Below the pieces are notes generated by a model. The model was not told the origin of the DNA. It saw only the letters and a program-made list of their open reading frames with translations, and searched no databases. A program made the position numbers and the translations under genes. Below, one piece after another: positions 8,279 to 51,279 of a stretch of 64,000 bases of DNA (its first letter is position 1; every line of letters begins with the position of its first letter). The stretch comes from Candidatus Dojkabacteria bacterium. Its GTDB lineage: Bacteria > Patescibacteriota > Dojkabacteria > B142 > OLB20. The stretch lies in assembly GCA_035444565.1 (NCBI GenBank), contig DAOMOX010000002.1, positions 105,335 through 169,334 of the forward strand. Reading direction: 5' to 3'.

Positions 8279-8303
8279 ATAATTATTGAGTCTGTTTAAT
8301 ATC

Positions 8304-8500
8304 CATGACTTGATCTCGCGTATGTTACTAGACGGGACGAATCTCTAGGTAGTAATTTTCCGAGTAATAATGGTAGGTATTCGTGAGAAAGAAATCCCTA
8401 TTCTGTCATTAAATGGTGGGATTGAAGGGATATTTTTTTGTTTTACGTTTGCAAGAGATCCCCTCCCGTCATCTTAATGGTAGGATCGAAGGGAAATCAT
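8304..8500. repeat. Composite intergenic repeat element, copy 1 (unit A plus two hairpin B units, degenerate)
   Basis: catgacttgatc...ggacgaatctctaggt followed by gagaNatccc..gtcat..N..gg(t)gggat(c)gaaggg hairpins. Homologous to 42322-42492 and 45303-45478. Confidence 0.7.
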
Positions 8501-17642: not shown

Positions 17643-17690
17643 GAGAGAGATCCCCCTCCCGTCATATTTTCAGACGGGATCGAGGGAAAT
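17643..17690. repeat. Solitary hairpin B unit of the composite repeat family
   Basis: gagagatccccctcccgtcatattttcagacgggatcgagggaaat matches B units at 42397-42492 and 45424-45478. Confidence 0.7.
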
Positions 17691-22283: not shown

Positions 22284-22329
22284 ATTTTAATTTCTTAATC
22301 TCTAAATTTCTTAATTTCTTCATTTTCCT

Positions 22330-24109: not shown

Positions 24110-24149
24110 CCTTGATAAATATCTTAGATAAAGTGTTGGAATTTGGAAT

Positions 24150-30854: not shown

Positions 30855-30861
30855 GAATACT

Positions 30862-32752: not shown

Positions 32753-32806
32753 ATATATGACACTATTGTATCAGATATAAAACATAGATTCAATACACAA
32801 ACATAT

Positions 32807-35543: not shown

Positions 35544-35653
35544 GAATGTGTTTGATAATAATTATTAAGTAAAACTCACAGTTCTTTTATCATTTAATTC
35601 CTCAATTCCTAAATTTCTCAATCTTTACATTTTATTTCCTCATTCCTCAATCT

Positions 35654-36385: not shown

Positions 36386-36472
36386 ATTTGTGGTTTCTAG
36401 GTTGAAGTTGATTATACTATTATTAACTATTCAAAGAAAGTAATCACCAGTAAGAATTTTGGTGATTGAGAC

Positions 36473-37192
36473 TTATACCTTAAAGTAATCCATCTTCTGA
36501 GTATTTTTACACGTAGGGAAGTTTGTACATCCCCAGAATATCCCATATTTTCCTTCAACAATCTTCATCCTGCTGTCGCATTTGTTACAGAACTTGACTG
36601 AATCCCTATTAATTAATGGTCTGAGAGGAATTTCTACATTATATTTTTTTATTATACTCACTAGTTCATAGCCATTTATCAATCTAATAGGTCTTTCACT
36701 TGCGAAACGCTTTGCATCTAGCGTGAAAATATTAGTAGTTACAAAATATGCATTGGCATTATTCAGTTTATCTACTGTGGCACCATAAAAATCTCTCATA
36801 TCACTAAGAGTTACAACTCGGTTTATGTACTTTTTACATTGTATATAGTGAGTTTTTTCCCCTTTTTTTACAATTATATCTATTCCTCCATCCCTCAGGC
36901 CACCAATCACATTTGTCGTGTAGCCTAATTGTTGAAATATTTTTCCAACAAACTCTTCAAATTCATGTGGTGAGAGATTTTTAATTGCCGAGAGCATTTC
37001 TTTATCACTTTTCCAAGTGAATTCTTTCCTCTCCGGAGTGCTTTGCTGTTGGGTGGGGATAGTGGGTAAAGACGAACTTACAGGTGGTGCTTTCTCATCT
37101 TTAGTAGCACTCAGAGCTTTGATAAGGAAAACTACGAGAGAAAGAATTACTACTAGATAGATACTACAAAACAGAAAAAAGAAATTCTCCAA
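36473..37192 (-). CDS. Mrr-cat-type restriction endonuclease domain protein with N-terminal TM and C-terminal topoisomerase-type C4 zinc finger
   Basis: FEEFVGKIFQQLGYTTNVIGGLRDGGIDIIVKK...HYIQCKKY (Mrr_cat D..D.K), C-terminal CNKCDSRM...CTNFPTC. Confidence 0.55.
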   Translation of the reverse strand: MENFFFLFCSIYLVVILSLVVFLIKALSATKDEKAPPVSSSLPTIPTQQQSTPERKEFTWKSDKEMLSAIKNLSPHEFEEFVGKIFQQLGYTTNVIGGLRDGGIDIIVKKGEKTHYIQCKKYINRVVTLSDMRDFYGATVDKLNNANAYFVTTNIFTLDAKRFASERPIRLINGYELVSIIKKYNVEIPLRPLINRDSVKFCNKCDSRMKIVEGKYGIFWGCTNFPTCKNTQKMDYFKV

Positions 37193-37310
37193 TGCTATGT
37201 AAAATATTTATAAATACATAGCTACATAGTACAAAAATTTATTCAAGATTTCCAAAATCGATATTTCCGAAATAAAGTATTAAAAATGGGGGTGTTACCA
37301 GTTCTGAGAA

Positions 37311-37865
37311 TTATTGATAGTTTTTGTTACTTGAAATTATTGATTTAACATCTTTCGCTACATCAAATACAAATTCCAAGTCTTGATCGTTATAGAGTTT
37401 ATCAATTCTTTTAAGATTTCCAATATGAAGCCTATTTCTAAAAGATCTTACTCTATCCAGGTTACTTTCTAGTTCTGGTTCAATTATGTGATATTTAGAA
37501 CAATAGTCTATAACTCTGTTAAAGTCCAATTTATTGATATCGATAGGCATTTGTTCACGTATTAATCCAACTACTTGTTTGTTCGGACTTATCTTGTAAA
37601 GCATTCTAATGTCAGTGTATTTCCAAGAATCTTTTGTTTTAATATTTCCAGAATTTACCTCATATTTAACTATGATCATCAATAGAGCCTCTATAATTGA
37701 AGCGGTGTGAATAATTATTGTTTTCCTAAAACTACTCAATGTAATAAGAGAATCGTCAAAATCCTTCTTCAACAATAAAGTAGAAAGTACAAGTATATGA
37801 TTGAAAGTAATATTGAGGTTAGTGCGTAGAATCGGATCTTTAATTTCAGGGAAATTATTTATCAC
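37311..37865 (-). CDS. Hypothetical protein (weak HEPN-like R-x6-H: RSFRNRLH). GTG start in ORF track
   Basis: ORF at head of the minus-strand defence gene string. Confidence 0.3.
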   Translation of the reverse strand: MINNFPEIKDPILRTNLNITFNHILVLSTLLLKKDFDDSLITLSSFRKTIIIHTASIIEALLMIIVKYEVNSGNIKTKDSWKYTDIRMLYKISPNKQVVGLIREQMPIDINKLDFNRVIDYCSKYHIIEPELESNLDRVRSFRNRLHIGNLKRIDKLYNDQDLEFVFDVAKDVKSIISSNKNYQ

Positions 37866-38034
37866 CTTCGACCATCATATCCACTAATGAAGGGAATCCG
37901 CCCTCTCTAAGGTAATCACCTAGCTTTGTGTTTGGGTCGACGGATAATTCGATACCATAAAGCTCCTTTAACTCGGAAACTTTAGTATTTCTGGTAAGAA
38001 TTATCTGGTTTTTGTCTTTTTTAACTTTTCTCAT
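37855..38034 (-). CDS. Unannotated 59-aa ORF overlapping start of 37311-37865 gene (possible small partner/antitoxin-like)
   Basis: ATG at complement 38032-38034, TAA at complement 37855-37857; MRKVKKDKNQIILTRNTKVSELKELYGIELSVDPNTKLGDYLREGGFPSLVDMMVEGDK. Below the 60-aa threshold of the supplied track. Confidence 0.25.
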   Translation of the reverse strand: MRKVKKDKNQIILTRNTKVSELKELYGIELSVDPNTKLGDYLREGGFPSLVDMMVEGDK

Positions 38035-38295
38035 AAGAAACTATACCACAAATTTAAATATGAACATTGTGCCGTAAGGCAAATATGAGTAACTTTCTAG
38101 AGAAATCCCCGTCTCGAATCAAGTTTCGTTTAAATTCCAAAAAAATCATCATTAAGATTAATATCAAAGATAAGTCATTAAAAAAATTTAATCAAAATTG
38201 CAGAAGACACTCTTCCAAATCTCCGTAACACACATACGGAGCGTATTATGGTATAATTGTATATGATTTTAAATCAATTTCGAACTAAATATTAA

Positions 38296-41200
38296 ATGGG
38301 GGACTTAGGCTTAGATAATAATCGCTGGTTGATTCCGAGATTGGACTATTTACCTGACGTTAATCCTTGGGATATGTTTAATCGAGAACGATTGCGCGTA
38401 TTTGGGGAGATAGTAGATAACTATTTTGTTCCACAATGCAATTTTCTTAGTTATGAAGATACAGAACAAGATTTAGATTATTTTGTTCAGAAATATCCAT
38501 TTTTATTAGATGGACAAGGAAGCCTTCCTCAATTGCATAGGAAAGTTTACGAACTTCAATCAAATGGGGTTTCTACACTAACAATTTTTGATATTTGTAT
38601 AGAATTTGACTGTCTTGATAAACTCGGCCAACAATTTCTAGAAAATCCACCACCTCATTTAGAATTAGGACTTAAAATTACAAACTCTGCAGAATATAAT
38701 TTGATACAACAAGCAGTAACAAGAAATCACCTACCTCAAGTTTTAAATTTTCTAAATTCTCTAATCCCCTTAAAAGAACCTGAAGGTGAAGAATACTTAA
38801 AACATCCAACACTCTGGTTAGAGCTACTAGGGAGTTCTTCAATGTACCGACCTAATGCAGTTATTCTGGCTGCTGAAAAAGGCAGTCTAAATCATCTAAC
38901 TGAAACAATCAAGTATTTGTCTACTATAGATGAAAACAGAACATTAAATTTATTCGAGAATGAATTTCAATTAGGTATGGGCGAATCAAATTTCTTACAT
39001 CATCTATTAAAAGGAAAACAATTGCATTCATCATTGATTGAGATGATTCAACAAGTTTATTCATCAAGCACTTATCGTCTTAAATCATTGCTTAATCAAA
39101 AAGACTTCTATGGGAATATTCCGACTCATGCCATATTGGGTCCTTACAGAGATTTTATTATACCATTAATAGATTTCGCTTATACGGAAGATAATGAAGG
39201 TTTAAAGTTGTTGCTAGAAAAATTTGGAATCTCAAATTTAATTAGGACCAGTGCCACGAGTAATTTACTACCAGGTCTAATAACTAAAACTTATAGTGAT
39301 GCAACTGAAATACTCTTAGAATACGTAACACCAGTCATCCATGACATTCTTAGAAATATTTCAATCACAGGAAACTTGGAGTCATTTGAAATATTGAAAC
39401 TAGCTTATTCATCTCATCCGGGAGAATTATTTAAAACATTTATTGAATCAGAGTCAAATGCTGAACTACTAATACATGCTGCTCAAAATCATCATGTAGC
39501 ATCTGCTAGGGAATACATAAAATACATATTTAAAGACCATCCAGATTTATTGCAAGAATATTTACATCGACCAGATTCAAATACTATCGCACAAGAAAAT
39601 GATACATACCAAATCGCATTTTTAAGATACCTTTCCTCTCCTCATGATTTCATTCCAGCAATGGAAATTTTGGAACAAGCATATTTAACTAATGATCAAA
39701 ACGGCGAGAACTCTCAAAAATTATCTGGGAAGAATATAATTCAACCTTTTTTAAAAGTAGCTTCGACTAATCCTGAAATCTTAACTTGTGAAGTAATTTC
39801 TAGGTTCAAATTGATATTAGATAGAAGTAATTACACTTATCTAATTAGTAATCCAGATGTAAGAGAAGTATTAGTAAATTATGAAATAGAACATATAGTA
39901 CCACGTTCAAATACATTTTTTCGAATGGGTATAGATGAACAATATTCAGGAGATATGGCACGTATTGCAGTAGAAGCATATACAGAATATTCTTATTTTA
40001 AACAAGTACTTGAATCCTACCCTACTATACTATCAAAAGTATTAGGGACTGAGCTTATAGTTAATCTTGGACCTACGGAAAACGAGGCAAGAAGTGCCTA
40101 TGATAGAGAAATTTTAGACATAAGTAAGAAATTTATATCGTTATTAGAAAATCATTTTAATATCAGAGGAAACTTTTACATTATTGACGAATCTGAACAA
40201 GATCAAGACATTCAGCCAACTGAGGATCTAATATCTCGCCTATTTCCGACTAGAAAGCATCAATTTTTTGTAAACGAAAAATTAATCACAGACATTTTCG
40301 AACAACCTCCTTTAACAAGGCTTGGTTTTCTTGCAAGAAGAGCATTATTGGGGGGAGACTTCCCTGATAGGCCAGAGGACAAAGCTTTGAGAAGTATTTT
40401 CCCAGAGGATTTTACAATGTTTTACAAGCCTGATAACGACTACTTGCCTATACCAATACTCCCAGAACACTGGGCAGAACTTGCTTTAAAGTTATCTCAT
40501 TGTACTCCTAATTTAGAAAATGGATCTTTCCTAGATAGCATACAAGTTATTTCTGGTATTGTAGACTCATTAAAGGAAATTGCTAAATTATCGGAAATAC
40601 CACTGACCGACAGGTTATTAACTGACATTGAAAGTTTTGCAAAGTTGTTAGGTAGATATTATATCAATACAGTTTATGCAACTGATAATACAAAGATTAA
40701 ATCCAAGGAAGAGGTAGATAAACACCCAATTATTATAAAAATCTTAGATCCAGATGATAACGAAGATTTGGCAGATTTTATAAGATATCGATTTGCAGGG
40801 GATCCCATACAAGATCTCAAACTTACGGCTCAATACAAACATTTGCCATCCGAAATTGGTTTGATGGCTTACGATCCACATACAACCGTAGCCCTCTTGT
40901 ATGAAAATCGTTCGGATGTAACTATTTCACTTGAAGAAGAGCATCCAATGGATAATGATTTTATGGATGAAATTTCAAAAGAAGAATTAAGGTATAACAT
41001 TGAACGATTAGCTTTTGGTTATGTAACAATAACTGAGGGTACATTTAGAACCTCAGAAGAGGAAGATGCTCGTCGTATAATCATCCTAGGAGACGCCGAG
41101 ATGGGATCTTACCGCAGCAATGCTAATGTTGCAGAAATCTTATTAACTCTCGCACGAACTCTAAAACAAAAAACAGGTCTGGATGTGATAATTTCTACCG

Positions 41201-41409
41201 CGTATCACAAAATTTTTGTAAACGAAAGTACTGCAGAAAGCTCAGATATATCAATACCGCCTACAACCTCTAAAATCAAGCGCAATTCAGAAACAAAAGT
41301 AACGGATAATACAGGGATACCGCTTTCAGAAGAAGTGTATTTACATCATCAAGAGGATAAAACGAAGGCACCAACGGCAGCAGAAAATTACTGGTTTATG
41401 ATTAGCTGA
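38296..41409 (+). CDS. Large orphan protein (1037 aa) with ankyrin-like N-terminal repeats and a DUF1524-like EHIVPRS motif
   Basis: Repeated ...NAVILAAEKGSLNHL..., ...NIPTHAILGPYRDFIIPLIDF... (ankyrin-like helices). YEIEHIVPRSNTF resembles the DHHIVPRSWG His-Me finger motif of the GmrSD gene at 57814-60090. Confidence 0.4.
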   Translation: MGDLGLDNNRWLIPRLDYLPDVNPWDMFNRERLRVFGEIVDNYFVPQCNFLSYEDTEQDLDYFVQKYPFLLDGQGSLPQLHRKVYELQSNGVSTLTIFDICIEFDCLDKLGQQFLENPPPHLELGLKITNSAEYNLIQQAVTRNHLPQVLNFLNSLIPLKEPEGEEYLKHPTLWLELLGSSSMYRPNAVILAAEKGSLNHLTETIKYLSTIDENRTLNLFENEFQLGMGESNFLHHLLKGKQLHSSLIEMIQQVYSSSTYRLKSLLNQKDFYGNIPTHAILGPYRDFIIPLIDFAYTEDNEGLKLLLEKFGISNLIRTSATSNLLPGLITKTYSDATEILLEYVTPVIHDILRNISITGNLESFEILKLAYSSHPGELFKTFIESESNAELLIHAAQNHHVASAREYIKYIFKDHPDLLQEYLHRPDSNTIAQENDTYQIAFLRYLSSPHDFIPAMEILEQAYLTNDQNGENSQKLSGKNIIQPFLKVASTNPEILTCEVISRFKLILDRSNYTYLISNPDVREVLVNYEIEHIVPRSNTFFRMGIDEQYSGDMARIAVEAYTEYSYFKQVLESYPTILSKVLGTELIVNLGPTENEARSAYDREILDISKKFISLLENHFNIRGNFYIIDESEQDQDIQPTEDLISRLFPTRKHQFFVNEKLITDIFEQPPLTRLGFLARRALLGGDFPDRPEDKALRSIFPEDFTMFYKPDNDYLPIPILPEHWAELALKLSHCTPNLENGSFLDSIQVISGIVDSLKEIAKLSEIPLTDRLLTDIESFAKLLGRYYINTVYATDNTKIKSKEEVDKHPIIIKILDPDDNEDLADFIRYRFAGDPIQDLKLTAQYKHLPSEIGLMAYDPHTTVALLYENRSDVTISLEEEHPMDNDFMDEISKEELRYNIERLAFGYVTITEGTFRTSEEEDARRIIILGDAEMGSYRSNANVAEILLTLARTLKQKTGLDVIISTAYHKIFVNESTAESSDISIPPTTSKIKRNSETKVTDNTGIPLSEEVYLHHQEDKTKAPTAAENYWFMIS

Positions 41410-41721
41410 GATTAATTATAGAATCAAAGCTTTTCTGATATAAGAATCGTTCTATAAATAATTCTTTCATTATCAAGAACTCCCCATTTCAATAAAATAT
41501 TGTTTCCGAATTCAGCATTAATCTAATTAAGAAATATCTCTCCCCCTATGTTTTTAGTCTGAATCAGAGGAAAATCTCAATTCTGGAATAAAAATGGAAA
41601 ATATCATGATTTCCCAAATCAGTTTGAAAAATAACACGTAAGTTAATATAATGTAATTAATCACGAGGGAGAAACGACTGTACTTTTTCGTAAAGTATGC
41701 TACGCCTCCCACTTTTTATAC

Positions 41722-42249
41722 TCAAGCCAATTCCACCTTCTTTCTCTCTCTTTCTAAAAAAACTTTTTCATTTTGGAATCTTTTAAGTAAAGACGATTCA
41801 GATTTACGATTTGGAATAATGATTTTCAACAACTTCCTTTCTCTTTTCAAATATTGGTGTAAACAATAAAAATCTCCATCACCAGACACAATGACAGCTT
41901 GATTATAATTTTCGTATTGGATTATTGCAGAATGCAACACCAATTCTGCGTCGACATTCCCTTTTGGTTTTCCGGAGTGATCTTTTATTGTAGGCTTGAA
42001 AATTAGTTTATAGTCATAACTTCTTAATGCATCATACAACTTCTGATTTTCAGGTATAAATCCTATAAACAGAAAAACCTTCTTAGCCTTAAATTTGTCT
42101 GTTAAATAAATTCGAAACTTTTTATAATCTAATTTCCAACCTGAATATATTCTTTTCTTCCCTCTCTAAATATCTTTACTTGTTCCTAGATTTAGATTCT
42201 GACTGTCAATAAATACGTAAATCTTAGATTTATCAAATTCCCTAATCAT
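41722..42249 (-). pseudogene. NYN/LabA-like (PIN-fold) domain gene interrupted by in-frame TAG at complement 42166-42168
   Basis: MIREFDKSKIYVFIDSQNLNLGTSKDI-[TAG]-RGKKRIYSGWKLDYKKFRIYL...AVIVSGDGDFYCL; same frame on both sides of the amber codon. TAG is used as a normal stop elsewhere (e.g. gene ending 5693). Confidence 0.5.
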
Positions 42250-42321
42250 CAGTGAATCATTAATAACATAAGTTTACACGAGTTTTCTGGATATTTTATG
42301 AATTACCAAATGTATTAATTT

Positions 42322-42492
42322 CCCTGACTTGATCCCGCCTCCGTTACATGGCGGGACGGATCTCTAGGTTATGATTTACCTAAACAAATGTTTGAGAGAG
42401 ATCCCCTCCCGTCATGTTTTAAGACGGGATCGAGGGGAAATATATGAGAGAGATTCCCTCCCGTCATGTTTTTAGACGGGATCGAGGGGAAA
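42322..42492. repeat. Composite repeat element, copy 2 (unit A plus two hairpin B units), upstream of RND transporter
   Basis: ccctgacttgatcccgcctccgttacatggcgggacggatctctaggtt ... 2x gagagatcccctcccgtcatgttttaagacgggatcgaggggaaa. Confidence 0.8.
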
Positions 42493-42585
42493 ATTTGACG
42501 TACTGAATCCTGAATATATCTTTCTGAATTCTCTCTTTTCGCCCATGATATAATTCCTGCTAGCTTAATATTAGTTAATAACACA

Positions 42586-45246
42586 ATGAATAACAACTTG
42601 GTTACGAGATTTAGCGAAATTTTCTTCAAACGAAGTAGACTTACAATTCTACTTATAATTTCAGTACTTTTGCTTGGATTCTATTCATATTCAACTCTTC
42701 TGAAGCGAGAAGGTTTTCCAGTAATCAACTTACCAATTATTGTTGTAAATACCCCTTATCTTTCAGGAGATCCAGCAAAGACCGAAGCTGATATAACTGG
42801 GAAGATTTCCTCGAAAATCACAGAAATTGAAGGAGTAAAGGAAATCCAAACCACTTCCACATCAAATCTATCTTCAATTTTTGTCTCGCTTGATGATGGT
42901 ATCACGACTGCAGATGATGCGAAGGACAAGATTGAAAATGAAATATCAAAACTTAATCTAGAATCAGAGCCTATAATAATAGTTCCGAATGCAGCTCTCG
43001 TGGATGGTCAAAATGATCTTGTTTTTTCAATTTATTCAAAAGACTTAACAATCGAACAACTTCAGCAAAAAGCATTGTTGATTGAAACAGAACTTGAGAA
43101 AAGCGATTTGATAAAAGAGGTTAATATTAAAAATCAAATCACTACAGAGTTCGACTTTGCTACCCAGCAAGAGGTCACAGCAACACGTTCATATGCGAGA
43201 TCACTTGTGAAAAATGATGGCGAACTTGAGGCTTATGACTCACTTGATATTGGTGTTGTAAAGAAAAATACAGATGTAGGAACTATTGAGCTATCCGATG
43301 AAGTGAAAGCAATTGTCGAGAGAAGTTTAGAGAAAGAAGAGTTAGATGGAATTAGCGCACTTTATAGCGCAGATCCAGCAACATATCTCAGAGCGCAGAT
43401 ATCTTCCCTAGAATCAAATGCATTAGCTGCGATGATTACAATTTTTGTCATCTTACTGTTGTTTATAAACCTTCGTTCAGCAATTTTATTAGCATTATTC
43501 ATCCCTCTCACACTCGCATCAGTGTTTTTCATCTTCTCAATCTTCGGCTATACATTAAATACAATTTCATTGTTTGCTTTGATTTTAGTACTTGGGCTTT
43601 TCGTAGATGATGGGACAATCATCGTAGAGGCAATCGACTACTACAAAAGGCAAGGCCAGAAAGGTTTCCAAGCTGTCAGAAGTGCAATTAACGATATTGG
43701 AATCGCCGATATCTCAGGAACACTTACAACAGTTTTAGTGTTTCTTCCACTTGTTTTTGTTACTGGAATTTTGGGAGATTTTATAAAAATTCTTCCAATG
43801 ACAGTGATAATCGCTCTATTAGTTTCTCTATTTATCGCCCTAACAATCCTTCCATTTCTCTCTTCGTTCTTAATCAAAGACTTAGACAACAAGAAGAAAA
43901 GCAAAGAGAACATCCTATCAATCATAGTCAACTTCGTTCCAAAACTTATGATTAATTTCTCTGAAAAAAGTGGAAGAACTGTAAAACAAACATTGGAATC
44001 AAGATATTACCGCTTAGGCTTATTCGCCGTCTCATTAATATTAATTGGTATTGGGGGATACTATGCTAGCCAATTAAAGTTTGCATTCTTCGCACCTGCA
44101 AAAGACTCTGATTTGATTACAATTTCAGTTACGAATAAAATTCCTACTGACATTACGACAGCGAAATCTGCCACAACAGAACTCGAAAAATTAGTTGTTG
44201 ATAATTTCTCGGAAGAAATTCAAGAAATTGCCTACCTCGATGCAAATCAAAGAGGTGCTGAGATTAGAGTTTCTTTGAGTCCAATCACTGAGAGAGACAT
44301 TACTGCTGGGGATATTGTTCGAGAAATTAATGAATTAACCAAAGACAATGAAAGCTTAGTAGTAAGCGCTTCTATCGTTTCTGCTGGACCTCCCGTCGCT
44401 CAGTTTCCATTTGCAATGCAACTTTTCTCCGAAAATCAAACTGTCTTAGAAACAAAGTCTGCAGAGATTGCCGAATTCATAAAATCAACAGAACTTGATA
44501 AAGATGTTCAAGTTGAAGATGTAAAGGTTGATTACACCAAAGAAATCCGAAGAAAAGACAATGAAAGATTTGCCGAAATTAGAGTAAAGTTCAATGATAA
44601 ATACGATAGTGCCACATTATTGGAATTACAAGAAATTATAGAAGGTGAATACAACGGTGAGGACAATTCCGAATTCTCTCTTGGATTTGATTTCGGACAA
44701 GAGAGTGAAAATGCAAACTCCTTTAATTCTGTAGTATTTGCAGGATTAATAGCACTAATTGTTATGTATATTTTATTAGTATTGCAGTTCAACTCATTCA
44801 CACAGCCACTACTGATTTTGGTAGCAATACCATTTAGTTTTCCAATTTTATTCCCTGGACTGTTCTACACAGATAATCCAATGAGTTTCTTCGTTGTGAT
44901 TGGTCTTACCGGTCTGATTGGAATCGTAGTTAATAACACTATCATATTGATAGAATATGCCAACGCACAAAGGAAGTCTGGAAAATCCATAATTGACTCA
45001 ATAGCAGAATCAGTGAGATTGAGGACAAGACCGATTTTCACTACATCACTCACAACCATAGCTGGATTACTTCCTTTGGCACTCACTGAACCATTCTGGG
45101 AGCCATTGGCTTTCACTATCATCTTTGGATTAATCTCCAGTGTGATGATGATTGTCATCGCCTTCCCGGTTTACTACTTCTTTGTGGAATCCGCACGAGA
45201 TTTGTTCTACAAGAATGTTAAGAAGTTTAAGATGAGGGGGTTGTAA
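42586..45246 (+). CDS. RND-superfamily transporter (MMPL/AcrB-like; two TM bundles with large extracytoplasmic loops)
   Basis: 886 aa with hydrophobic clusters at about 270-430 and 720-880 and a duplicated domain layout. Confidence 0.5.
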   Translation: MNNNLVTRFSEIFFKRSRLTILLIISVLLLGFYSYSTLLKREGFPVINLPIIVVNTPYLSGDPAKTEADITGKISSKITEIEGVKEIQTTSTSNLSSIFVSLDDGITTADDAKDKIENEISKLNLESEPIIIVPNAALVDGQNDLVFSIYSKDLTIEQLQQKALLIETELEKSDLIKEVNIKNQITTEFDFATQQEVTATRSYARSLVKNDGELEAYDSLDIGVVKKNTDVGTIELSDEVKAIVERSLEKEELDGISALYSADPATYLRAQISSLESNALAAMITIFVILLLFINLRSAILLALFIPLTLASVFFIFSIFGYTLNTISLFALILVLGLFVDDGTIIVEAIDYYKRQGQKGFQAVRSAINDIGIADISGTLTTVLVFLPLVFVTGILGDFIKILPMTVIIALLVSLFIALTILPFLSSFLIKDLDNKKKSKENILSIIVNFVPKLMINFSEKSGRTVKQTLESRYYRLGLFAVSLILIGIGGYYASQLKFAFFAPAKDSDLITISVTNKIPTDITTAKSATTELEKLVVDNFSEEIQEIAYLDANQRGAEIRVSLSPITERDITAGDIVREINELTKDNESLVVSASIVSAGPPVAQFPFAMQLFSENQTVLETKSAEIAEFIKSTELDKDVQVEDVKVDYTKEIRRKDNERFAEIRVKFNDKYDSATLLELQEIIEGEYNGEDNSEFSLGFDFGQESENANSFNSVVFAGLIALIVMYILLVLQFNSFTQPLLILVAIPFSFPILFPGLFYTDNPMSFFVVIGLTGLIGIVVNNTIILIEYANAQRKSGKSIIDSIAESVRLRTRPIFTTSLTTIAGLLPLALTEPFWEPLAFTIIFGLISSVMMIVIAFPVYYFFVESARDLFYKNVKKFKMRGL

Positions 45247-45302
45247 AAAGTGTGAAATTAAAAGACAGACTCCTCTTCAAAAGAAATCAAGTGCATCAAC
45301 TT

Positions 45303-45478
45303 TCCCTGACTTGATCTCCTCCGTTACATGGCGGTACGGATCTCTAGGTTGTGTATTACCTTAGAAATACTTAGGTAAAACGTTTGTGAGAGATCCCCTT
45401 TTTCAAGGGGAGATGTTGAATTTTTCGTTTACGAGAGATCCCCCTCCCGTCAAGTTTCTAGACGGGACCAGGGGGAAA
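45303..45478. repeat. Composite repeat element, copy 3 (unit A, a truncated B and a full B unit), downstream of RND transporter, same orientation as copy 2
   Basis: ccctgacttgatctcctccgttacatggcggtacggatctctaggtt ... gagagatcccctttttcaagggga ... gagagatccccctcccgtcaagtttctagacgggaccagggggaaat (compensatory extra C/G in stem). Confidence 0.8.
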
Positions 45479-45618
45479 TTATGTTACTAAAGCTGAAACT
45501 AAAATTTTTATTCCCTAATTTTTAAATCTTTCATGTAACGGAACGCAAGGAATTCCTCTTTACTTAGTGATAAGATTCATTCAGATACAAACTAATTCAC
45601 ATTTGTTATAATAAAACA

Positions 45619-45852: not shown

Positions 45853-46051
45853 ACAATATTCCTCAAATGACGTTATATCAACTCTAAAATCTATTGGATT
45901 TGAGTTTATTTCTCAAAAAGGTAGCCATAAAAAATTTAGGAAAGGGAAATTAGTCGTAATTGTACCTTCGGGAAGAAAAGTAATTCCTCTTGGAACTTTG
46001 AGATCTATAAAAAGACAGGCAGGACTTGGAAAAGATATTTTTGCGAGGTAA
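45845..46051 (+). CDS. hicA: HicA-family mRNA interferase toxin
   Basis: LKSIGFEFISQKGSHKKFRKGKLVVIVPSGRKVIPLGTLRSIKRQAGL matches the HicA (YcfA) signature. Confidence 0.7.
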   Translation: MPKQYSSNDVISTLKSIGFEFISQKGSHKKFRKGKLVVIVPSGRKVIPLGTLRSIKRQAGLGKDIFAR

Positions 46052-46065
46052 CTATCAACTCTTAC

Positions 46066-46088
46066 ACTGTCACTCCTGCGAAAGCAGG
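46066..46088. terminator. Stem-loop actcctgc-gaaa-gcaggagt, probable bidirectional terminator
   Basis: Perfect 8-bp stem with GAAA loop 15 nt after the hicA stop. Confidence 0.4.
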
Positions 46089-46091
46089 AGT

Positions 46092-46271
46092 CTAACCCCC
46101 TTCATTCTCCCCAAAAAGCTCGGTCTTCCTTTTCTCTACCAGCTCTACCAATCCTTCCCAAACTTTCTGTACATCCTTATTTATTACAACCTTATTCTTT
46201 ACCTCTACTAACATATCAAACTTTATTTTATGCTTTCTCCAACTTCTACCTTCATCTAGATAGATATTCAT
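46092..46271 (-). CDS. Unannotated 59-aa ORF (MNIYLDEGRSWRKHKIKFDMLVEVKNKVVINKDVQKVWEGLVELVEKRKTELFGENEGG)
   Basis: ATG at complement 46269-46271, stop at complement 46092-46094; fills gap between hicA and HD gene. No known domain. Confidence 0.2.
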   Translation of the reverse strand: MNIYLDEGRSWRKHKIKFDMLVEVKNKVVINKDVQKVWEGLVELVEKRKTELFGENEGG

Positions 46272-46316
46272 GACTGGTAGGATTTTATCGAGGGTATAAA
46301 CAAATTCAGATTCAGG

Positions 46317-46685
46317 CTATTCCTTTTTCTCATACTCGTGAATTAATTTTAATAGTTCAGGAAATTCGCTAAATTCTTTTCCAATTTTTTCTAATGCAAC
46401 TTTCTCTTTCTGGACTTTTAACTCTTTTGAAGCCTTGTCTGCGTAGAAAAATGTGTCCCCTGCATAAATCTCAACCAAATCATGAACTAATGCATACTTT
46501 ATTATTTTATCGATGTCGTATTTCAGTTTCTCTGTGGAAATTATGTACCAGGAGACCATGGCGAGTTGAAAGCTATGTTCAGAATCATTTTCTAATCGAT
46601 TTTCTCCTGTTGCGTAAATTCTCCGCTCAAGCTGATTAAATTTAATTATAAATTCTGAGAAGTTAAGGATTCTTTTGATGTTCAT
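46317..46685 (-). CDS. HD-domain phosphohydrolase (YfbR-like short form)
   Basis: SEHSFQLAM ... ALVHDLVEIYAGD (H...HD...D metal ligands). Confidence 0.55.
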   Translation of the reverse strand: MNIKRILNFSEFIIKFNQLERRIYATGENRLENDSEHSFQLAMVSWYIISTEKLKYDIDKIIKYALVHDLVEIYAGDTFFYADKASKELKVQKEKVALEKIGKEFSEFPELLKLIHEYEKKE

Positions 46686-46753
46686 AATGTTTTATTTATG
46701 AAATACCTTACCATCTTGTAATTTAAAAGTAGGACTCAAGGAAGGTGAATATT

Positions 46754-47080
46754 TTATTGGTTGAGTTTATCACTAATTTCTTTATCCAAACTATCCATCG
46801 TCTCCATAAATACCTTCTCTAAATCAATATCATACTTTTTCGCAATTATGAGAATAGACCAAAGACAGTCCGAGAGCTCATGTGCTAACTTTTCTTGAGA
46901 ATTTTCTATCTCACGTTTACCATTTTGAGCCTGTATGAGTTTTACTAAATCTCCAATGTCACCAACTAATCCCATGGTCAAATCCTCAATTGACCAAGGT
47001 TTACCATACTTATTTGTCTCGAATTGTTCGTATTTTTCTCTGATTTCTAAAGCTCTTTTTTGGATTTCTGTGAGATTCAT
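46754..47080 (-). CDS. MazG-like nucleotide pyrophosphohydrolase (small all-alpha NTP-PPase)
   Basis: LTMGLVGDIGDLVKLI and AHELSDCLWSILIIAKKYDIDLE match MazG EExxE/D motifs. Confidence 0.55.
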   Translation of the reverse strand: MNLTEIQKRALEIREKYEQFETNKYGKPWSIEDLTMGLVGDIGDLVKLIQAQNGKREIENSQEKLAHELSDCLWSILIIAKKYDIDLEKVFMETMDSLDKEISDKLNQ

Positions 47081-47105
47081 TATGATTGATGTTAAATATG
47101 TATAA

Positions 47106-47149
47106 ATCGGGCTGGTGAGACTTCCCTGCTTTCGCAGGGATAAACTACA
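47106..47149 (-). repeat. tRNA 3'-end pseudo-fragment type A (T-stem/acceptor ...TCTCACCAGCCCGA) with conserved TTTATCCC-hairpin-GGGAAG insertion, copy 1
   Basis: Minus-sense GTAGTTTATCCCTGCGAAAGCAGGGAAGTCTCACCAGCCCGAT; identical copy at 47318-47361. Confidence 0.6.
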
Positions 47150-47233
47150 TTTCCTATAGCATCGTAGCCATGCCTACGCTAAAGCTACGGCAGACTCACG
47201 ATTGAGTAATTTCTCACTTCGTTCTAAAACTCA

Positions 47234-47285
47234 ATCGGAGCGACTAGACTTCCCTGCTTCCGCAGGGATAAACTCCCTAGCGACT
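47234..47285 (-). repeat. Pseudo-fragment of tRNA-Pro(GGG) 3' end (T-arm and acceptor) with the T-loop replaced by the conserved hairpin insertion
   Basis: Minus-sense GTCGCTAG[GGAGTTTATCCCTGCGGAAGCAGGGA]AGTCTAGTCGCTCCGAT versus intact gene GTCGCTAG[TTCG]AGTCTAGTCGCTCCGAT. Confidence 0.65.
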
Positions 47286-47317
47286 TAATAACTAATGTAG
47301 TTACACCATTCTTTGCA

Positions 47318-47361
47318 AATCGGGCTGGTGAGACTTCCCTGCCTTCGCAGGGATAAACTAC
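47318..47361 (-). repeat. tRNA 3'-end pseudo-fragment type A, copy 2
   Basis: Same as 47106-47149 with one loop substitution (ttt to ctt). Confidence 0.6.
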
Positions 47362-47374
47362 ATTTTATTTAAAA

Positions 47375-47448
47375 TCGGAGCGACTAGACTCGAACTAGCG
47401 ACCTCACGCACCCCATGCGTGCGTTCTAGCCAACTGAACTACGCTCCG
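47375..47448 (-). tRNA. tRNA-Pro (anticodon GGG)
   Basis: Minus-sense CGGAGCG TA GTTC AGTTGGCTA GAAC G CACGC ATGGGGT GCGTG AGGTC GCTAG TTCGAGT CTAGT CGCTCCG A, followed by TTTT. Confidence 0.8.
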
Positions 47449-47555
47449 CTAAATAAATTATACATCCTGAACTTAATTTTTACTAAATGCTTATCAATAA
47501 CATCATTAATCTGGTAAAATCTGTTACGATCTTTGAATGACCGGAGTTAACCTGT

Positions 47556-47879
47556 GGTGACATGGCCAAGCTTGTCCCGCCAAGGCGGGATGAAGTAAGG
47601 CATGGGTCAATCTTTCTAAGATGACCATATTGAAAAAGGAGATAAAAAACATAGCTATTTTAAAAAAGAATTAAAAGAGAGGAGAATAAACTCACCGGAG
47701 GATTCCTCGGATTAAGTGGTGACATGGCCAAGCTTGTCCCGCCAAGGCGGGATGAAGTAAGGCATGGGTCAATCTTTCTAAGATGACCATATTGAAAAAG
47801 GAGATAAAAAACATAGCTATTTTAAAAAAGAATTAAAAGAGAGGAGAATAAACTCACCGGAGGATTCCTCGGATTAAGT
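47556..47879 (+). repeat. Tandem direct repeat, 2 x 162 bp, each unit beginning with a 5' fragment of tRNA-Cys (nt 1-31) carrying a 25-nt D-loop hairpin insertion
   Basis: Units 47556-47717 and 47718-47879 identical: GGTGACATGGCCAAG[cttgtcccgccaaggcgggatgaag]TAAGGCATGGGTC|aatctttctaag... A third unit would start exactly at the intact tRNA-Cys (47880). Confidence 0.8.
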
Positions 47880-47950
47880 GGTGACATGGCCAAGTGGTAA
47901 GGCATGGGTCTGCAAAACCCTTATCCCGGGTTCGATTCCCGGTGTCACCT
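47880..47950 (+). tRNA. tRNA-Cys (anticodon GCA)
   Basis: GGTGACA TG GCC..GGC A TGGGT CTGCAAA ACCCT TATC CCGGG TTCGATT CCCGG TGTCACC T; U33, A37, no encoded CCA. Confidence 0.8.
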
Positions 47951-47952
47951 TT

Positions 47953-48037
47953 GCCGTGGTGGCGGAATTGGTATACGCGCTGGACTTAAAATCCAGTGGC
48001 CTTAACAGCCTTAAGGGTTCGAGTCCCTTCCGCGGCA
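47953..48037 (+). tRNA. tRNA-Leu (anticodon TAA), class II with long variable arm
   Basis: GCCGTGG ... CTGGA CTTAAAA TCCAG T GGC CTTAACA GCC TT AAGGG TTCGAGT CCCTT CCGCGGC A. Confidence 0.75.
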
Positions 48038-48066
48038 GTTGTTTTAATAATAAATGGTGCTTTTTG

Positions 48067-48133
48067 AAGGGACGAGAAGTTTATCCCGTGAAATTTATGA
48101 AAGAAATTTATACGGGAAGTCCCTTACGCGGCA
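48067..48133 (+). repeat. Pseudo-fragment of tRNA-Leu 3' end with T-loop replaced by a 49-nt insertion of the same family; downstream flank ttgttttaataat also duplicated
   Basis: AAGGG[ACGAGAAGTTTATCCCGTGAAATTTATGAAAGAAATTTATACGGGAAGT]CCCTTACGCGGCA versus AAGGG[TTCGAGT]CCCTTCCGCGGCA in the intact gene 30 nt upstream. Confidence 0.65.
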
Positions 48134-48185
48134 TTTGTTTTAATAATCCAGCAAATCCCGAATACTGAATTTTGAATTATTTAAC

Positions 48186-48289
48186 ACGGGATATAATTCA
48201 ATTTCCACCAGAGGCGGACCAGCCTTTGGCTGGGGCTAGAATGTACGCTTCGGGTGCGTAATGTTCCCGGTTCAAGTCCGGGTATCCCG
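48186..48289 (+). tRNA. tRNA-Pro (anticodon CGG) with about 28-nt insertion (putative non-canonical intron) in the D-loop; CCA follows at 48290-48292
   Basis: CGGGATA TA ATTC [A-ATTTCCACCAGAGGCGGACCAGCCTTTG-GCTGGGGCTA] GAAT G TACGC TTCGGGT GCGTA ATGTT CCCGG TTCAAGT CCGGG TATCCCG A. All stems Watson-Crick, G37 as expected for Pro. Confidence 0.6.
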
Positions 48290-48569
48290 ACCAATCAAGA
48301 CGTGATTTTTTGAAATATCACGTAAAGCCTCATACAGAGGGCTTATTTCCATGTTCGTAAGTTCGTAATTTTTATATGTGGGTACGTTCGTAAACATACT
48401 TCCCAAAATATCCCTTCTTTGATTAAAGGTTGCAATTTCCCAGTATCGGTCTATTTTTGCACCAAATTGGGCTAACATTGTTGAAGATTGGCAAATTCAT
48501 CTAGTAGGTTAATTCTCTTGTTACCTTTAAGGGTTGAAGGTTAAACCCTCAAAATTTGAGCAGTTGAAA

Positions 48570-48607
48570 CTTACTTTCTTTATCTCTAGCCGAAATAAGA
48601 AAGTAAG
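48570..48607. promoter_or_regulatory. 11-bp perfect inverted repeat cttactttctt-N16-aagaaagtaag upstream of XRE regulator/hsdR operon
   Basis: Perfect palindrome arms read directly from the sequence. Confidence 0.4.
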
Positions 48608-48616
48608 CAAAGAAAG

Positions 48617-48892
48617 TTGGCATTTCACTTACAAAAGTTGTATGATACAGTAATATCATATTACCAGTATTTGAACACTATGTTTACAAACATTGGAGAG
48701 AAAATTAAGAAAGTAAGAAACGATAAAGGGTTGACACAGGAGGAGTTAGCCCAAAAGGCTAATATCTCCTATATAACCCTTGTGAAAATTGAGCAAGGAA
48801 AGGTTGAGAATCCTACAATGAAGACTTTGCAAAAAATTGCAAAGGCATTGGAAATTTCTCTTGATGAAATAGTTAAAAATGTAAAACAATGA
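48617..48892 (+). CDS. XRE-family helix-turn-helix transcriptional regulator (controller of R-M operon), probable true start 48680
   Basis: IGEKIKKVRNDKGLTQEELAQKANISYITLVKIEQGK (HTH_XRE); stop overlaps hsdR start. Confidence 0.65.
   Translation: MAFHLQKLYDTVISYYQYLNTMFTNIGEKIKKVRNDKGLTQEELAQKANISYITLVKIEQGKVENPTMKTLQKIAKALEISLDEIVKNVKQ
48650..48664. promoter_or_regulatory. Operator-like palindrome GTAATAT-C-ATATTAC just upstream of probable XRE start (ATG 48680)
   Basis: Perfect 7-bp inverted repeat. Confidence 0.35.
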
Positions 48893-51279
48893 ATAAAAAT
48901 CAATTATCAGAAACAGACATTAGAACAAAGTTTATTACACCCGCAATTCAAGATGCAGGTTGGAATATTCAAAAGCAAGTGCGAGAGGAAGTCCACTTTA
49001 CTGATGGAAGGATAATTGTTAAAGGAGAAACAGTAAAAAGAGCTAAAGGTAAGAAAGCTGATTATATCCTGTACTACAAATCAAACCTTCCCATTGCAAT
49101 TGTCGAAGCTAAAGACAACAAACACTCGATTGGAGATGGTATGCAACAAGGACTTGATTATGCTGAAATCCTTGATATACCTTTTGTATTCTCAAGCAAT
49201 GGAGATGGTTTCCTAGAACATGATAGAACTATTTCAGAGGGAAAAGTAGAAAGAGAAATATCATTACAGCAATTTCCTTCACCAGAAGAACTTTATCAAC
49301 GTTATAAAATTTGGAAGGGGTTATCTAGCGAGCAAGAACAAATTTTAAAACAAGACTACTACTACTCACCAACAAGTAAGACACCAAGATACTATCAAGA
49401 AATAGCTATCAACAGGACTGTTGAATCTATAGCAAAGGGAAAAGATAGACTTCTTCTTGTAATGGCAACAGGTACAGGGAAAACCTTTACTGCCTTTCAG
49501 ATAATGTGGCGGTTATGGCAAGCAAAGAAAAAGAAAAGAATTCTTTTTGTCGCTGACAGAAATATTCTAGTTGATGATCCGATGAGAAGAGATTTTTCTC
49601 CATTTGGTGAGAAAATGACAAAGATTAATAGACTTAACTTTAATATTCAGAAATACTCTGCATACGAAATTTTTATTGGATTGTATCAAAGCATAACTGG
49701 TTTGGATGAATCCCAAAAAATTTATAAACAGTTTCCAAGAGATTTTTTTGATTTGATAGTCATTGACGAAGCACACAGAGGAAGTGCTTCTGATGATTCT
49801 GCTTGGAGAGAAATATTAGAGTATTTTAACAGTTCGACTCAAGTCGGTATGACTGCTACTCCAAAGCAAGAGCATGGAGCAGATAATATTGAATACTTTG
49901 GTGAACCAGTTTACACATATTCACTAAAACAAGGGATTGAAGATGGTTTTCTTGCCCCTTACAGGGTAATTAGAGTGACTCTTGATACGGATTCAGAAGG
50001 CTTTAGACCTTACACAGGTCAAGTTGATAAGTATGGAAACGAAATTCCAGATGAAGAATATAACGTGAAAGATTTTGATAGAAGAATTGTTATTGATGAA
50101 AGAACAGAAATCATTGCAAGAAAGATTACTGAATTTCTAAAAAATACAGACCGATTCTCAAAAACAATCGTTTTTTGTGTAGATATTGCTCATGCAGAAC
50201 GTATGAGACAAGCTTTAATGAATGAGAATGTTGATCTAGTAAACGAAAATCGAAAATATGTGATGCGAATTACTGGTGATAACGAGGAAGGTAAAAACGA
50301 ATTGGATAACTTTATTGACCCAGAACAAAAATATCCAGTTGTTGTAACTACTTCGAAGCTACTTACAACAGGAGTTGACGCTAAAACTTGTAAATTGATT
50401 GTGCTAGATACAAATATCAACTCAATGACTGAATTTAAACAGATTATTGGCAGAGGTACGAGACTTGACCCTGATTTTGACAAGTATTTCTTTACAATAA
50501 TGGACTTTAGACAGGCTACTAAGTTATTTGCTGACCCTGCATTTGACGGTCCTGCAATAAGCACATCTGAAAAAACAGAAGATGATGAGATTACTCTACC
50601 ATCTGAAGATGAATATGTAGTCACCCCAGAGGAAGCAGAAGCATTAAAAGATTCAGCTGATATTGAATATATAAGTTCAAAAAATGATGTTTCGATAGAT
50701 GGTGCACCTGAAAAGCCTAAGAAGTATTATGTAAATGGTGTTGATGTTGAAGTTATAAATGAAACAGTTCAGTACTATGATGAGAACGGAAAACTTACAA
50801 CAGAATCATTAAGAAGCTATACGAAGAAAAGTCTTATTAAAAGATATAAAACACTTAATGAATTTCTGAATGATTGGAATGATGCTGAAATGAAATCTGC
50901 AATACTAGAGGAGCTTGAGGAACAGGGAATCTTTTTTGAAGAATTGAAAAAAGAAGTTGGAAAAGAATTAGATCCTTTCGATATGATTCTACACATTGCT
51001 TTTGATAAACCACCTCTTACACGTAGAGAAAGAGCTAATAATGTCATTAAGAGAAACTATTTTGAAAAGTATGGAGAGGAAGCTCGAAAAGTTTTACAGG
51101 CACTTCTTGATAAATACTCCGATGAAGGAATTATGGCACTTGAAGATATGGAAGTACTGAAAGTTCAGCCAATAAATCAGTTTGGTTCTCCTGTAGAAAT
51201 CGTGAGTTATTTCGGAGGTAGAGAGCAATATGTTGAAGCAGTCCAACAAATGGAACAATTAATTTATATGCAAGCTTAA
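48889..51279 (+). CDS. hsdR: Type I restriction enzyme R subunit (short form)
   Basis: HsdR N-terminal nuclease region (KADYILYY...IVEAKD), MATGTGKT Walker A, IVIDEAHRG DEAH box. Confidence 0.8.
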   Translation: MNKNQLSETDIRTKFITPAIQDAGWNIQKQVREEVHFTDGRIIVKGETVKRAKGKKADYILYYKSNLPIAIVEAKDNKHSIGDGMQQGLDYAEILDIPFVFSSNGDGFLEHDRTISEGKVEREISLQQFPSPEELYQRYKIWKGLSSEQEQILKQDYYYSPTSKTPRYYQEIAINRTVESIAKGKDRLLLVMATGTGKTFTAFQIMWRLWQAKKKKRILFVADRNILVDDPMRRDFSPFGEKMTKINRLNFNIQKYSAYEIFIGLYQSITGLDESQKIYKQFPRDFFDLIVIDEAHRGSASDDSAWREILEYFNSSTQVGMTATPKQEHGADNIEYFGEPVYTYSLKQGIEDGFLAPYRVIRVTLDTDSEGFRPYTGQVDKYGNEIPDEEYNVKDFDRRIVIDERTEIIARKITEFLKNTDRFSKTIVFCVDIAHAERMRQALMNENVDLVNENRKYVMRITGDNEEGKNELDNFIDPEQKYPVVVTTSKLLTTGVDAKTCKLIVLDTNINSMTEFKQIIGRGTRLDPDFDKYFFTIMDFRQATKLFADPAFDGPAISTSEKTEDDEITLPSEDEYVVTPEEAEALKDSADIEYISSKNDVSIDGAPEKPKKYYVNGVDVEVINETVQYYDENGKLTTESLRSYTKKSLIKRYKTLNEFLNDWNDAEMKSAILEELEEQGIFFEELKKEVGKELDPFDMILHIAFDKPPLTRRERANNVIKRNYFEKYGEEARKVLQALLDKYSDEGIMALEDMEVLKVQPINQFGSPVEIVSYFGGREQYVEAVQQMEQLIYMQA

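Follow-up and report, generated by a model that had tools for sequence, protein, structure and literature searches.

A dispersed family of palindromic repeats, with REP/BIME-like mosaics, around an RND-type transporter gene of a Candidatus Dojkabacteria bacterium

Short imperfect GC-rich palindromes scattered between genes are known from repetitive extragenic palindromes (REPs), units of 20–35 nt that usually number more than 100 copies per genome. As two diverged subtypes that alternate in orientation with characteristic spacers they make up bacterial interspersed mosaic elements (BIMEs), and as inverted doublets that fold into one long hairpin they are called REPINs (for the definitions used here see PMC2817692 and PMC3116915). 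Systems in which REPs go together with a REP-associated tyrosine transposase (RAYT) have been described in Proteobacteria. Here we analyse a 64,000-nucleotide stretch of DNA (henceforth the window) from an uncultured activated-sludge Candidatus Dojkabacteria bacterium of the Candidate Phyla Radiation (CPR, Patescibacteria; assembly GCA_035444565.1, contig DAOMOX010000002.1, positions 105,335 to 169,334), in which hairpin-forming composite repeats stand on both sides of a gene for a transporter of the resistance-nodulation-division (RND)/MMPL type. We think it rather probable that these repeats belong to an undescribed family of extragenic palindromes, carried by one Candidatus Dojkabacteria lineage and assembled into mosaics like those of REP, BIME and REPIN elements. 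A full-text literature search returned no description of a REP-like, MITE-like (miniature inverted-repeat transposable element) or dispersed palindromic repeat family in CPR/Patescibacteria or Dojkabacteria.

Composite repeats were located at 8303-8497, 42322-42492 and 45304-45478, all on the + strand and in one shared orientation, and with the solo units the window holds 12 units at 5 sites in its 64 kb, every one of them between open reading frames (ORFs) when compared with those of the window. The repeat positions given in an earlier note, made from the letters alone, were borne out by the sequence itself, by 18-mer counts and by a direct-repeat finder. The 18-mers of the B-unit arms occur 3-4 times at no more than 3 mismatches (0.01 expected), the core of unit A, ACGGATCTCTAGGT, occurs three times (0.17 expected), and the direct-repeat finder independently recovered the repeat families D4, D6, D8 and D9. 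The same note had seen in them a dispersed family of hairpin-forming repeats resembling small non-autonomous mobile DNA, and this view also holds. For comparison, the transporter locus was fetched from relatives, here called L008 (NCBI GCA_021463645.1), L009 (Logan), L017 (ENA), L018 (JGI) and L010/L011 (ENA); L007 is one GTDB genome carrying a repeat unit, found by a gapped B pattern, and L013 is a further locus with a mosaic of units.

The earlier note had described the composite as a unit A followed by two B units. A covariance model built from nine B units and run unfiltered over the window recovered every B unit, and it also matched unit A on the - strand (42312-42375, 23.4 bits). The program nhmmer placed the same unit A at 42322-42367, again on the - strand (E 9.5e-9), and in the alignment the reverse complement of A reads AGAGATCCGTCCCGCCATGTAACGGAGGCGGGATCAAGTCAGGGAAA where B reads GAGAGATCCCCTCCCGTCATGTTTTAAGACGGGATCGAGGGGAAA. 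Since the B model matches A on the opposite strand and the alignment agrees, unit A is no motif of its own but a palindrome of the B type that has diverged and lies inverted. The composite then consists of an inverted doublet in head-to-head arrangement (<-A, spacer, B->), with a further B behind it. A composition with two B units of about 45 bp describes the copy at 42322 correctly and fails for the downstream copy, the first B of which (45388-45415) is a 28-nt short form.

The basic unit is about 45 nt long and folds as a two-tier hairpin, with an outer stem CCCCT/AGGGG, an inner stem CCCGTC/GACGGG and an asymmetric 3' bulge ATCG. Short forms retain only the outer stem around a loop of 4-6 nt, and the inner palindrome is missing. 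A lead-in, GTTTGAGA, is conserved before the B units in the alignment, and the outer ends TTTCCCT...AGGGGAAA amount to terminal inverted repeats. Units are joined in several ways, as <-A B-> B-> at three sites of the window, as B-> <-A Bshort-> in L017 and as B-> <-A(short) Bshort-> B-> in L013, and solo B units are found in the window, L007, L008 and L009. The coordinates of all units are collected in Table 1. A pseudoknot in unit A (TCCGT/ACGGA with CCCGCC/GGCGGG) was considered and rejected, its connecting loops being of zero length, which is sterically implausible, and its ACGGA reading ACTAA in L017.

Table 1. Repeat units of the window and the features next to them (coordinates count from the first letter of the window).
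Feature	Coordinates	Strand	Description and evidence
Unit A, third composite, degenerate	8303..8350	-	alignment, nhmmer
Degenerate B	8388..8433	+	covariance model 52.3 bits; nhmmer
B unit	8453..8497	+	covariance model; ortholog in L013 at 7706-7751
Solo long-form B	17646..17690	+	covariance model; between genes on - strand
18.4-kb segment absent from L017	24134..42492	.	right-hand end is the upstream composite; blastn map, junction alignment
Decayed solo B, newly found	41529..41575	+	covariance model 24 bits, E 0.001; nhmmer E 1.4e-6
Unit A, upstream composite	42322..42370	-	inner stem CCCGCC/GGCGGG; covariance model, nhmmer, alignment
A-B spacer	42371..42395	+	small hairpin AGGT..ACCT, lead-in GTTTGAGA; sequence, fold, alignment
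B unit 1, long form	42396..42440	+	covariance model 82.8 bits; fold -19.6 kcal/mol
B unit 2	42448..42492	+	52-bp tandem repeat of B unit 1, 3 differences (family D4)
Extended -10 element TGATATAAT, transporter promoter	42546..42554	+	conserved in L008, L017
RND/MMPL-type transporter, 886 aa	42586..45246	+	Pfam ACR_tran 3.5e-88; also MMPL, SecD/F
1.85-kb segment absent from L017	45250..47098	.	DUF7387/HicA, HD protein, MazG (Pfam); blastn map
Unit A, downstream composite	45304..45350	-	inner stem broken by 2-nt deletion
Short-form B	45388..45415	+	outer stem only, GATCCCCTT-tttc-AAGGGGA; covariance model 35.5 bits
Long-form B, downstream composite	45434..45478	+	alignment with L008, L018

The likeness to REP, BIME and REPIN elements is one of architecture. 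As in REPs, the units are short imperfect GC-rich palindromes outside genes; as in BIMEs and REPINs, two diverged subtypes alternate in orientation with characteristic spacers, and the inverted doublet folds as one long hairpin (A with B1 in the minimum free energy (MFE) fold); as in REPs and BIMEs, solo and decayed units stand beside doublets and the family is specific to a lineage. The differences are that RAYT-associated REPs have a GT(A/G)G head (PMC2817692), which is absent here, that the unit has about 45 nt in two tiers with a nested inner palindrome instead of the smaller REP size, and that the host is a CPR bacterium. Doublets are predicted to be better kept than singlets in REPINs (PMC3116915); among the few copies here, the intact ones are the solo units at 17646 and in L007 and the doublet at 42322, and the decayed ones are the solo units at 41529 and L008u and the doublet at 8303. 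As the GT(A/G)G head is missing, the DNA at hand contains no RAYT and copies were counted over 64 kb, we do not file the family as a member of the RAYT-REP group and say only that it resembles REP/BIME/REPIN elements in architecture.

Another modular repeat is the BOX element of pneumococcus, organized as boxA-boxB(n)-boxC (Martin et al. 1992, Croucher et al. 2011). By that general description, both have intergenic modules of about 50 nt, end modules complementary to each other and a middle module of about 45-52 nt that varies in tandem number. They differ in that no sequence relation is evident and that all modules of the present family are versions of one palindrome.

When the region 42310-42520 was folded, the 5' end of A paired with the 3' arm of B1 in the one long hairpin of the MFE structure (-80.8 kcal/mol, z = -5.4); the downstream composite (45292-45505) gave z = -3.7 and the decayed one (8291-8525) z = -0.5. 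Hairpins of single units reach -19.6 to -23.7 kcal/mol as RNA (z = -2.6 to -3.8), and a B unit reaches -11.2 kcal/mol as DNA (z = -3.5). Hairpins this stable as RNA and as DNA, most of whose sites are no more than about 120 nt from the 3' end of a gene, would be compatible with a role primarily at the RNA level, either as stabilisers or terminators in the 3' untranslated region (UTR) or as cis-regulatory elements or small RNAs whose pairing is maintained by selection. REPs do act in 3' UTRs in E. coli, according to one preprint (bioRxiv 10.64898/2026.03.23.713779). We regard a primarily RNA-level role as unlikely for the present units, on the grounds of covariation, transcription signals and distribution set out below.

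That pairing is under selection had been claimed in the earlier note from what looked like compensatory changes in the stems. In a MAFFT alignment of 15 distinct units, the power of which is lowered by an outer 3' arm wrongly placed in the A rows and by a shift of two decayed B rows, 74.2% of cells formed standard pairs against 73.8% in column shuffles (n=500), with 216 of the 500 shuffles reaching the observed value, and the covariation score was 0.205 against 0.190, a value reached by 120 of the 500; a covariation check on these copies thus gave no excess over shuffling. The units were also parsed by hand. One inner-stem position then switches between T-A (7 units), T-G (2) and C-G (5), which would speak for selection on pairing; it splits the A from the B subtypes, with wobble pairs as intermediates, and probably records a single event separating the two. 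The remaining variation breaks pairs (C-A, C-T, A-G, A-A, G-G), and decayed units fall to 2-4 of the 6 inner pairs. The C-run and G-run lengths that had been read as compensatory show no covariation (5'/3' = 4/4, 4/4, 5/5, 5/3, 4/3, 4/5, 4/5, 4/2). With pairing and covariation at the level of shuffles, only one covarying stem position and decayed copies that have lost their pairing, the claim of selection could not be sustained. An apparently compensated inner stem in L008u, CCAT/ATGG, was likewise rejected, as in register it consists of two mismatches plus a register shift.

The promoter of the transporter bears on the same question. Its extended -10 element follows a pattern, TGATATAAT, found 7 times in the window (2.2 expected), in most cases 20-45 nt upstream of ORF starts, and it lies downstream of the upstream composite, which therefore falls outside the 5' UTR and the transcription unit of the transporter. 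The composites are also missing at the orthologous loci of close relatives, Rfam gave no match at gathering score (up to E 10, noise only), and a B unit folds equally well on both strands (-19.6 vs -20.2 kcal/mol on the complementary strand), all of which leaves the proposal of a cis-regulatory RNA without support. Units occur in both orientations relative to neighbouring genes, as at 17646 between - strand genes. No T-run follows the stems, the + strand continuing with AAAT and the - strand with ATCTCTC, and a terminator scan stayed at background (3 sites vs 2.4 expected, none of them a unit stem), though the clade has a canonical hairpin with six T's upstream of its NYN gene and ordinary terminators are thus in use. 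The downstream composite stands between the stop codon of the transporter and a promoter-like TGTTATAAT (45604-45612); it is probably transcribed within the 3' UTR of the transporter, where by analogy with REPs its stable stem-loops might shield the mRNA. Nothing in the analysis points to regulation of the transporter by the repeats.

Two composites in direct orientation around a 2.7-kb gene, each with the terminal inverted repeats described above, invite comparison with a MITE-like pair or composite transposon, and the earlier note had suggested that such a cassette boundary mobilised the transporter. With MITEs such as the Correia elements of Neisseria or the enterobacterial ERIC/RU elements the composites share a length of 100-200 bp, terminal inverted repeats, an intergenic position and presence or absence among strains; they differ in lacking both a target-site duplication and a parent insertion sequence, and in being built modularly from repeated palindromes. 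Target-site duplications were looked for at the flanks of the three composites and of the solo units, and none was visible at any copy; no transposase was found in the window or the fetched loci either.

The relatives contradict mobilisation. The transporter locus is conserved in L008, L009, L017 and L018. In L008 (transporter 96% identical in amino acids) the upstream composite is absent and the downstream one present; in L009 (96%) and in L017 (93%, with the same core neighbours) both are absent; L018 (97%) has the downstream composite, and its upstream side is off the contig, which begins inside the transporter gene. The near-identical L011 and L010 carry the upstream and the downstream composite, respectively, and independently confirm both junctions of the window. 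The upstream intergenic region of L008 measures 165 bp and has no composite, and different genes, 2.1 kb in all, stand there for 6.1 kb of the window (36423-42542). In L009 the downstream composite has given way to an opposite-strand ceramidase gene (replaced stretch 257 bp vs 756 bp). The sequence of L017 runs from the equivalent of window 23369-24133 straight into the transporter and its promoter region, and there the stop codon abuts the tRNA-fragment repeats found from window position 47099 onwards, so that locus, promoter and tRNA-side neighbour are the same and neither composite is present.

Because close relatives have the transporter at the same locus without its flanking composites, and because the composites lie inside accessory segments, a different one on each side, the transporter was in all likelihood not mobilised by the repeats, and we rate the MITE-like pair as very improbable. 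As judged from these alignments, the transporter belongs to the core genes of the lineage rather than to a cassette, and it is situated between two insertion hot spots.

Units favour positions just inside the ends of strain-specific segments that carry mostly defence genes. The 18.4-kb segment that L017 lacks contains a Type I restriction-modification (R-M) system with the reverse transcriptase DRT RT_UG14 and AbiE, PD-(D/E)XK and Mrr nucleases (Pfam, PADLOC), a 1037-aa protein without family match and an NYN fragment. The downstream composite starts 55 nt inside the left end of the 1.85-kb segment, and both composites around the transporter are no more than 31-55 nt from the junctions between core and strain-specific DNA. 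About 1.4 kb of the window at the 8303 site is missing in L013, which keeps a mosaic in an intergenic region of 266 bp.

A position this close to junctions could also be that of att- or attC-like recombination sites, at which a site-specific recombinase would exchange defence modules beside a tRNA cluster. In addition, the 8303 composite lies between two small window-specific ORFs, L009 has swapped a composite for another gene, and the units resemble attC sites in being imperfect palindromes with unpaired bases (the asymmetric bulge is loosely like the attC extrahelical bases), in sharing one orientation and in bracketing a gene in a variable region. However, neither the window nor the fetched loci contain an integrase or recombinase (no ORF has a Phage_integrase match), the units conserve sequence where attC sites conserve only structure, the attC cores RYYYAAC...GTTRRRY are absent from them, and the bracketed gene is a core gene. 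The mosaic of L013 sits in its short intergenic region with no cassette, the solo and decayed units at 17646 and 41529 are away from junctions, the two composites occupy opposite ends of their respective segments, and an attachment scar of the 1.85-kb segment would more conventionally be seen in the tRNA-fragment repeats at 47104-47381. We consider recombination sites of this kind an unlikely explanation.

The palindromic units themselves turn over fast, the 52-bp tandem B unit and the inner palindrome both being gained or lost. L011, a contig at 2.6x coverage, has a single B unit against two in the window, and the 52 bp that it lacks correspond to B unit 2, a loss consistent with unequal exchange inside the identical 3' arms. 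At 45434-45478 a long unit is seen in the window and L010 and a short one in L008 and L018, the alleles differing by 22 nt against TT plus a neighbouring A/C change. Nucleotide identities of the transporter (window-L018 94.1%, window-L008 90.8%, L008-L018 90.0%) give the tree ((window,L018),L008); with the short form in both L018 and L008, parsimony makes it ancestral and the inner palindrome a gain of the window lineage. A second such pair is formed by the long unit at 17646 of the window and the short one at 1424-1451 of L017, and at this 17.6-kb site the short B of L017 is preceded by an NYN gene, a B and an A, against one long B in the window. In both pairs, a TT in the short allele takes the place of the 20-22-nt inner palindrome of the long one. 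Either an insertion into the hairpin loop or a short patch of gene conversion could account for the gain, and the adjacent substitution slightly favours conversion.

The likeliest mechanism, to which we give somewhat better than even credence, is hairpin-mediated spread or gene conversion of the units, with a secondary role as recombination substrates. Units would spread or be homogenised by hairpin-dependent single-strand transposition, with the enzyme supplied in trans, or by copies converting one another over short patches, and the homology of dispersed units would then aid the recombination that swaps accessory segments. A further function of the repeats as structures in 3' UTRs is possible.

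The gain of the inner palindrome can also be read otherwise, with this REP-sized palindrome of 20-22 nt (CCCGTC-loop-GACGGG) as the mobile entity, inserting without target duplication into the loop TT of a host hairpin, and with the mosaics as recombination junctions of defence islands. The host hairpin, GAGAG..CCCCT-loop-AGGGG-AAA, would head strand-polar 8-bp arrays, and the process would be a structure-targeted, hairpin-in-hairpin single-strand transposition in a CPR genome of about 1 Mb, with some nuclease as driver. There are precedents of a sort: IS1397 inserts into the loops of BIME palindromic units, and the small dispersed repeats of cyanobacteria treated by Elhai and colleagues in 2008 are reportedly nested. 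The likeness is that, at orthologous sites, a palindrome of this size turns up in the loop of a hairpin that was already there; the difference is that gene conversion from a paralogous long unit fits equally well and that there are two or three events only. Our credence in a mobile inner palindrome is accordingly low.

As to distribution, the gapped B pattern gave one real match in genome contigs (L007) and two chance matches, and a degenerate pattern applied to metagenome contigs gave the two that are near-identical to the window (L010, L011) and one chance match. A 16-mer scan of viral contigs returned chance matches only (L001-L004), and no repeat copies were found in the viral, phage and plasmid collections. 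Copies are also absent from L014-L016, related through the phosphorylase (75-82% aa identity), and from L019, related through the transporter (62%). Within the sequences searched, the repeat family is restricted to a lineage within Candidatus Dojkabacteria.

Several points weigh against an extragenic family of REP-like mobile units. No copy has GTAG or GTGG at the foot of its stem, the lead-in being GTTTG(A/C)GAGAGATC, and no RAYT, IS200/IS605 TnpA, PF01797-type or other transposase was found among the approximately 50 window ORFs of at least 100 aa and the called genes of the fetched loci. About 18 distinct units have been seen in all, in the window, the fetched loci and the scanned contigs. 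The difference of two B units against one rests on the thinly covered contig L011 and is possibly a collapsed assembly, and the gain of the inner palindrome may be gene conversion instead of insertion. For a whole composite there is no exact pair of filled and empty sites, as lost composites come with the surrounding DNA replaced (L008, L009, L017), and exact presence/absence differences concern only sub-units (B2, the inner palindrome), so that transposition of the doublet is conjectural.

The locus documents a BIME-like mosaic family in one or more lineages of Dojkabacteria, among the small genomes of CPR/Patescibacteria. A few percent of sequence divergence is enough for this family to turn over, and its units cluster where defence-gene insertions have their borders. 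Should many copies and a moving enzyme be confirmed, REP/REPIN-type biology would reach beyond Proteobacteria, and the units could serve as strain-typing markers for wastewater CPR bacteria. The consequence for the transporter is small, given a core gene with its own promoter that is repeat-free in close relatives.

The last B unit at a site regularly leads into ..TACTGAAT.., the start of an array with a period of 8 bp. Such intergenic arrays, of consensus ~AATTTCTN (e.g. AATTCCTC AATCTCTC AATTTCTA CATTTCTA), were seen in the window at 17701-17740, 21226-21249, 22288-22345, 23590-23621, 24419-24450 and 35595-35671, and in relatives at 1830-1920 of L007, 9925-9955 of L008 and 45-95 of L025. Eight are on the + strand and one on the - strand (0.3 expected per strand), with an orientation that stays constant regardless of the direction of flanking genes, and none is present in the more distant L014, L016 and L019.

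Genes of the NYN (LabA/DUF88) type also adjoin repeat units, at 41722-42039 of the window (- strand; a fragment between the decayed B unit and the <-A unit), at 627-1148 of L017 (- strand) and at 264-806 of L025, a 76%-identical homolog with a short-form hairpin and 8-bp arrays about 200 bp upstream. Many NYN homologs are found on contigs of 1-2 kb. The candidacy of NYN as a RAYT analogue was rejected: the window and L017 proteins are unrelated beyond the domain (E = 0.14), the L017 type is shared by many CPR phyla at 60-76% identity, and its locus is one and the same in 10 of the 10 contigs carrying the gene.

Along the transporter gene, nucleotide identity between the window and L018 is a mosaic that ranges from 88% to 99.7% per 300 nt, which suggests frequent homologous recombination among co-occurring strains. 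In L019 the 62%-identical homolog lies directly downstream of carotenoid genes (2004-10347; lycopene cyclase, glycosyltransferase, carotenoid synthase and an amine-oxidase-type desaturase). What the 886-aa RND/MMPL family exports may be a lipid or carotenoid instead of drugs, and the transporter scores far under the NCBIfam cut-offs for multidrug RND permeases. The best named homologs of the transporter and the phosphorylase are from Candidatus Dojkabacteria and other CPR bacteria, and the contigs near-identical to the window come from activated-sludge and wastewater assemblies. A cyanobacterial origin, which 34% GC and HIP-like GATC motifs had suggested, was rejected on account of the Dojkabacteria homologs.

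The window, with a GC content of about 34%, is a defence-island region dominated by defence genes. They comprise two Type I R-M systems, one with a DRT reverse transcriptase (RT_UG14, 1.9e-180) and AbiEi/AbiEii, together with Mrr-type and PD-(D/E)XK nucleases, GmrSD, a SMODS nucleotidyltransferase, HicA, MazG and an HD protein. The Type I operon at 25057-34384 (HsdR, HsdS, HsdM) has the DRT reverse transcriptase embedded at 27866-29431 and AbiEi/AbiEii at 30862-32752, and L009 shares its S-AbiE-M part and not the remainder. The 1037-aa ORF (38296-41409), for which Pfam, NCBIfam and PADLOC gave no match, adjoins the Mrr-type nuclease and is a candidate novel defence gene. GATC was rejected as a methylation or restriction signal, being neither markedly depleted nor enriched (175 observed vs 205-267 expected).

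Around the 8303 composite (7660-9055), the two small ORFs at 7730-8278 and 8608-9000 have no family match and are preceded by separate TGATATAAT-like promoters; the orthologous intergenic site of L013, L014 and L016, between GH15 and aldehyde-dehydrogenase genes, contains neither ORF. Array sequences of the ctgaattcttaattct kind occur on both sides of the second ORF (8608-9000).

Between 46000 and 49000 the orientation of genes turns from mostly - strand to + strand. A replication origin near 47-48 kb, where the cumulative GC skew has its minimum (46000-49000), was rejected, as the skew follows gene orientation and no dnaA was seen. The tRNA-fragment repeats of this region (47104-47381, and L017 7201-7265) are three copies of a repeat of about 65 nt, each with a hairpin CCCTGC-ttc-GCAGGG; they adjoin tRNA-Pro (47375-47448, - strand), resemble tRNA 3'-end fragments and may be attachment scars of tRNA-integrated islands. 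Next to the B unit of L007 there is a hairpin like it, CCTGCcttcGCAGG. A perfect tandem duplication of 162 bp follows at 47554-47877; its copies open with the first 17 nt of tRNA-Cys (47880-47950) and continue with a GC hairpin, CCCGCCAAGGCGGG, which has the look of a tRNA 5' fragment that was duplicated or of a scar left by recombination.

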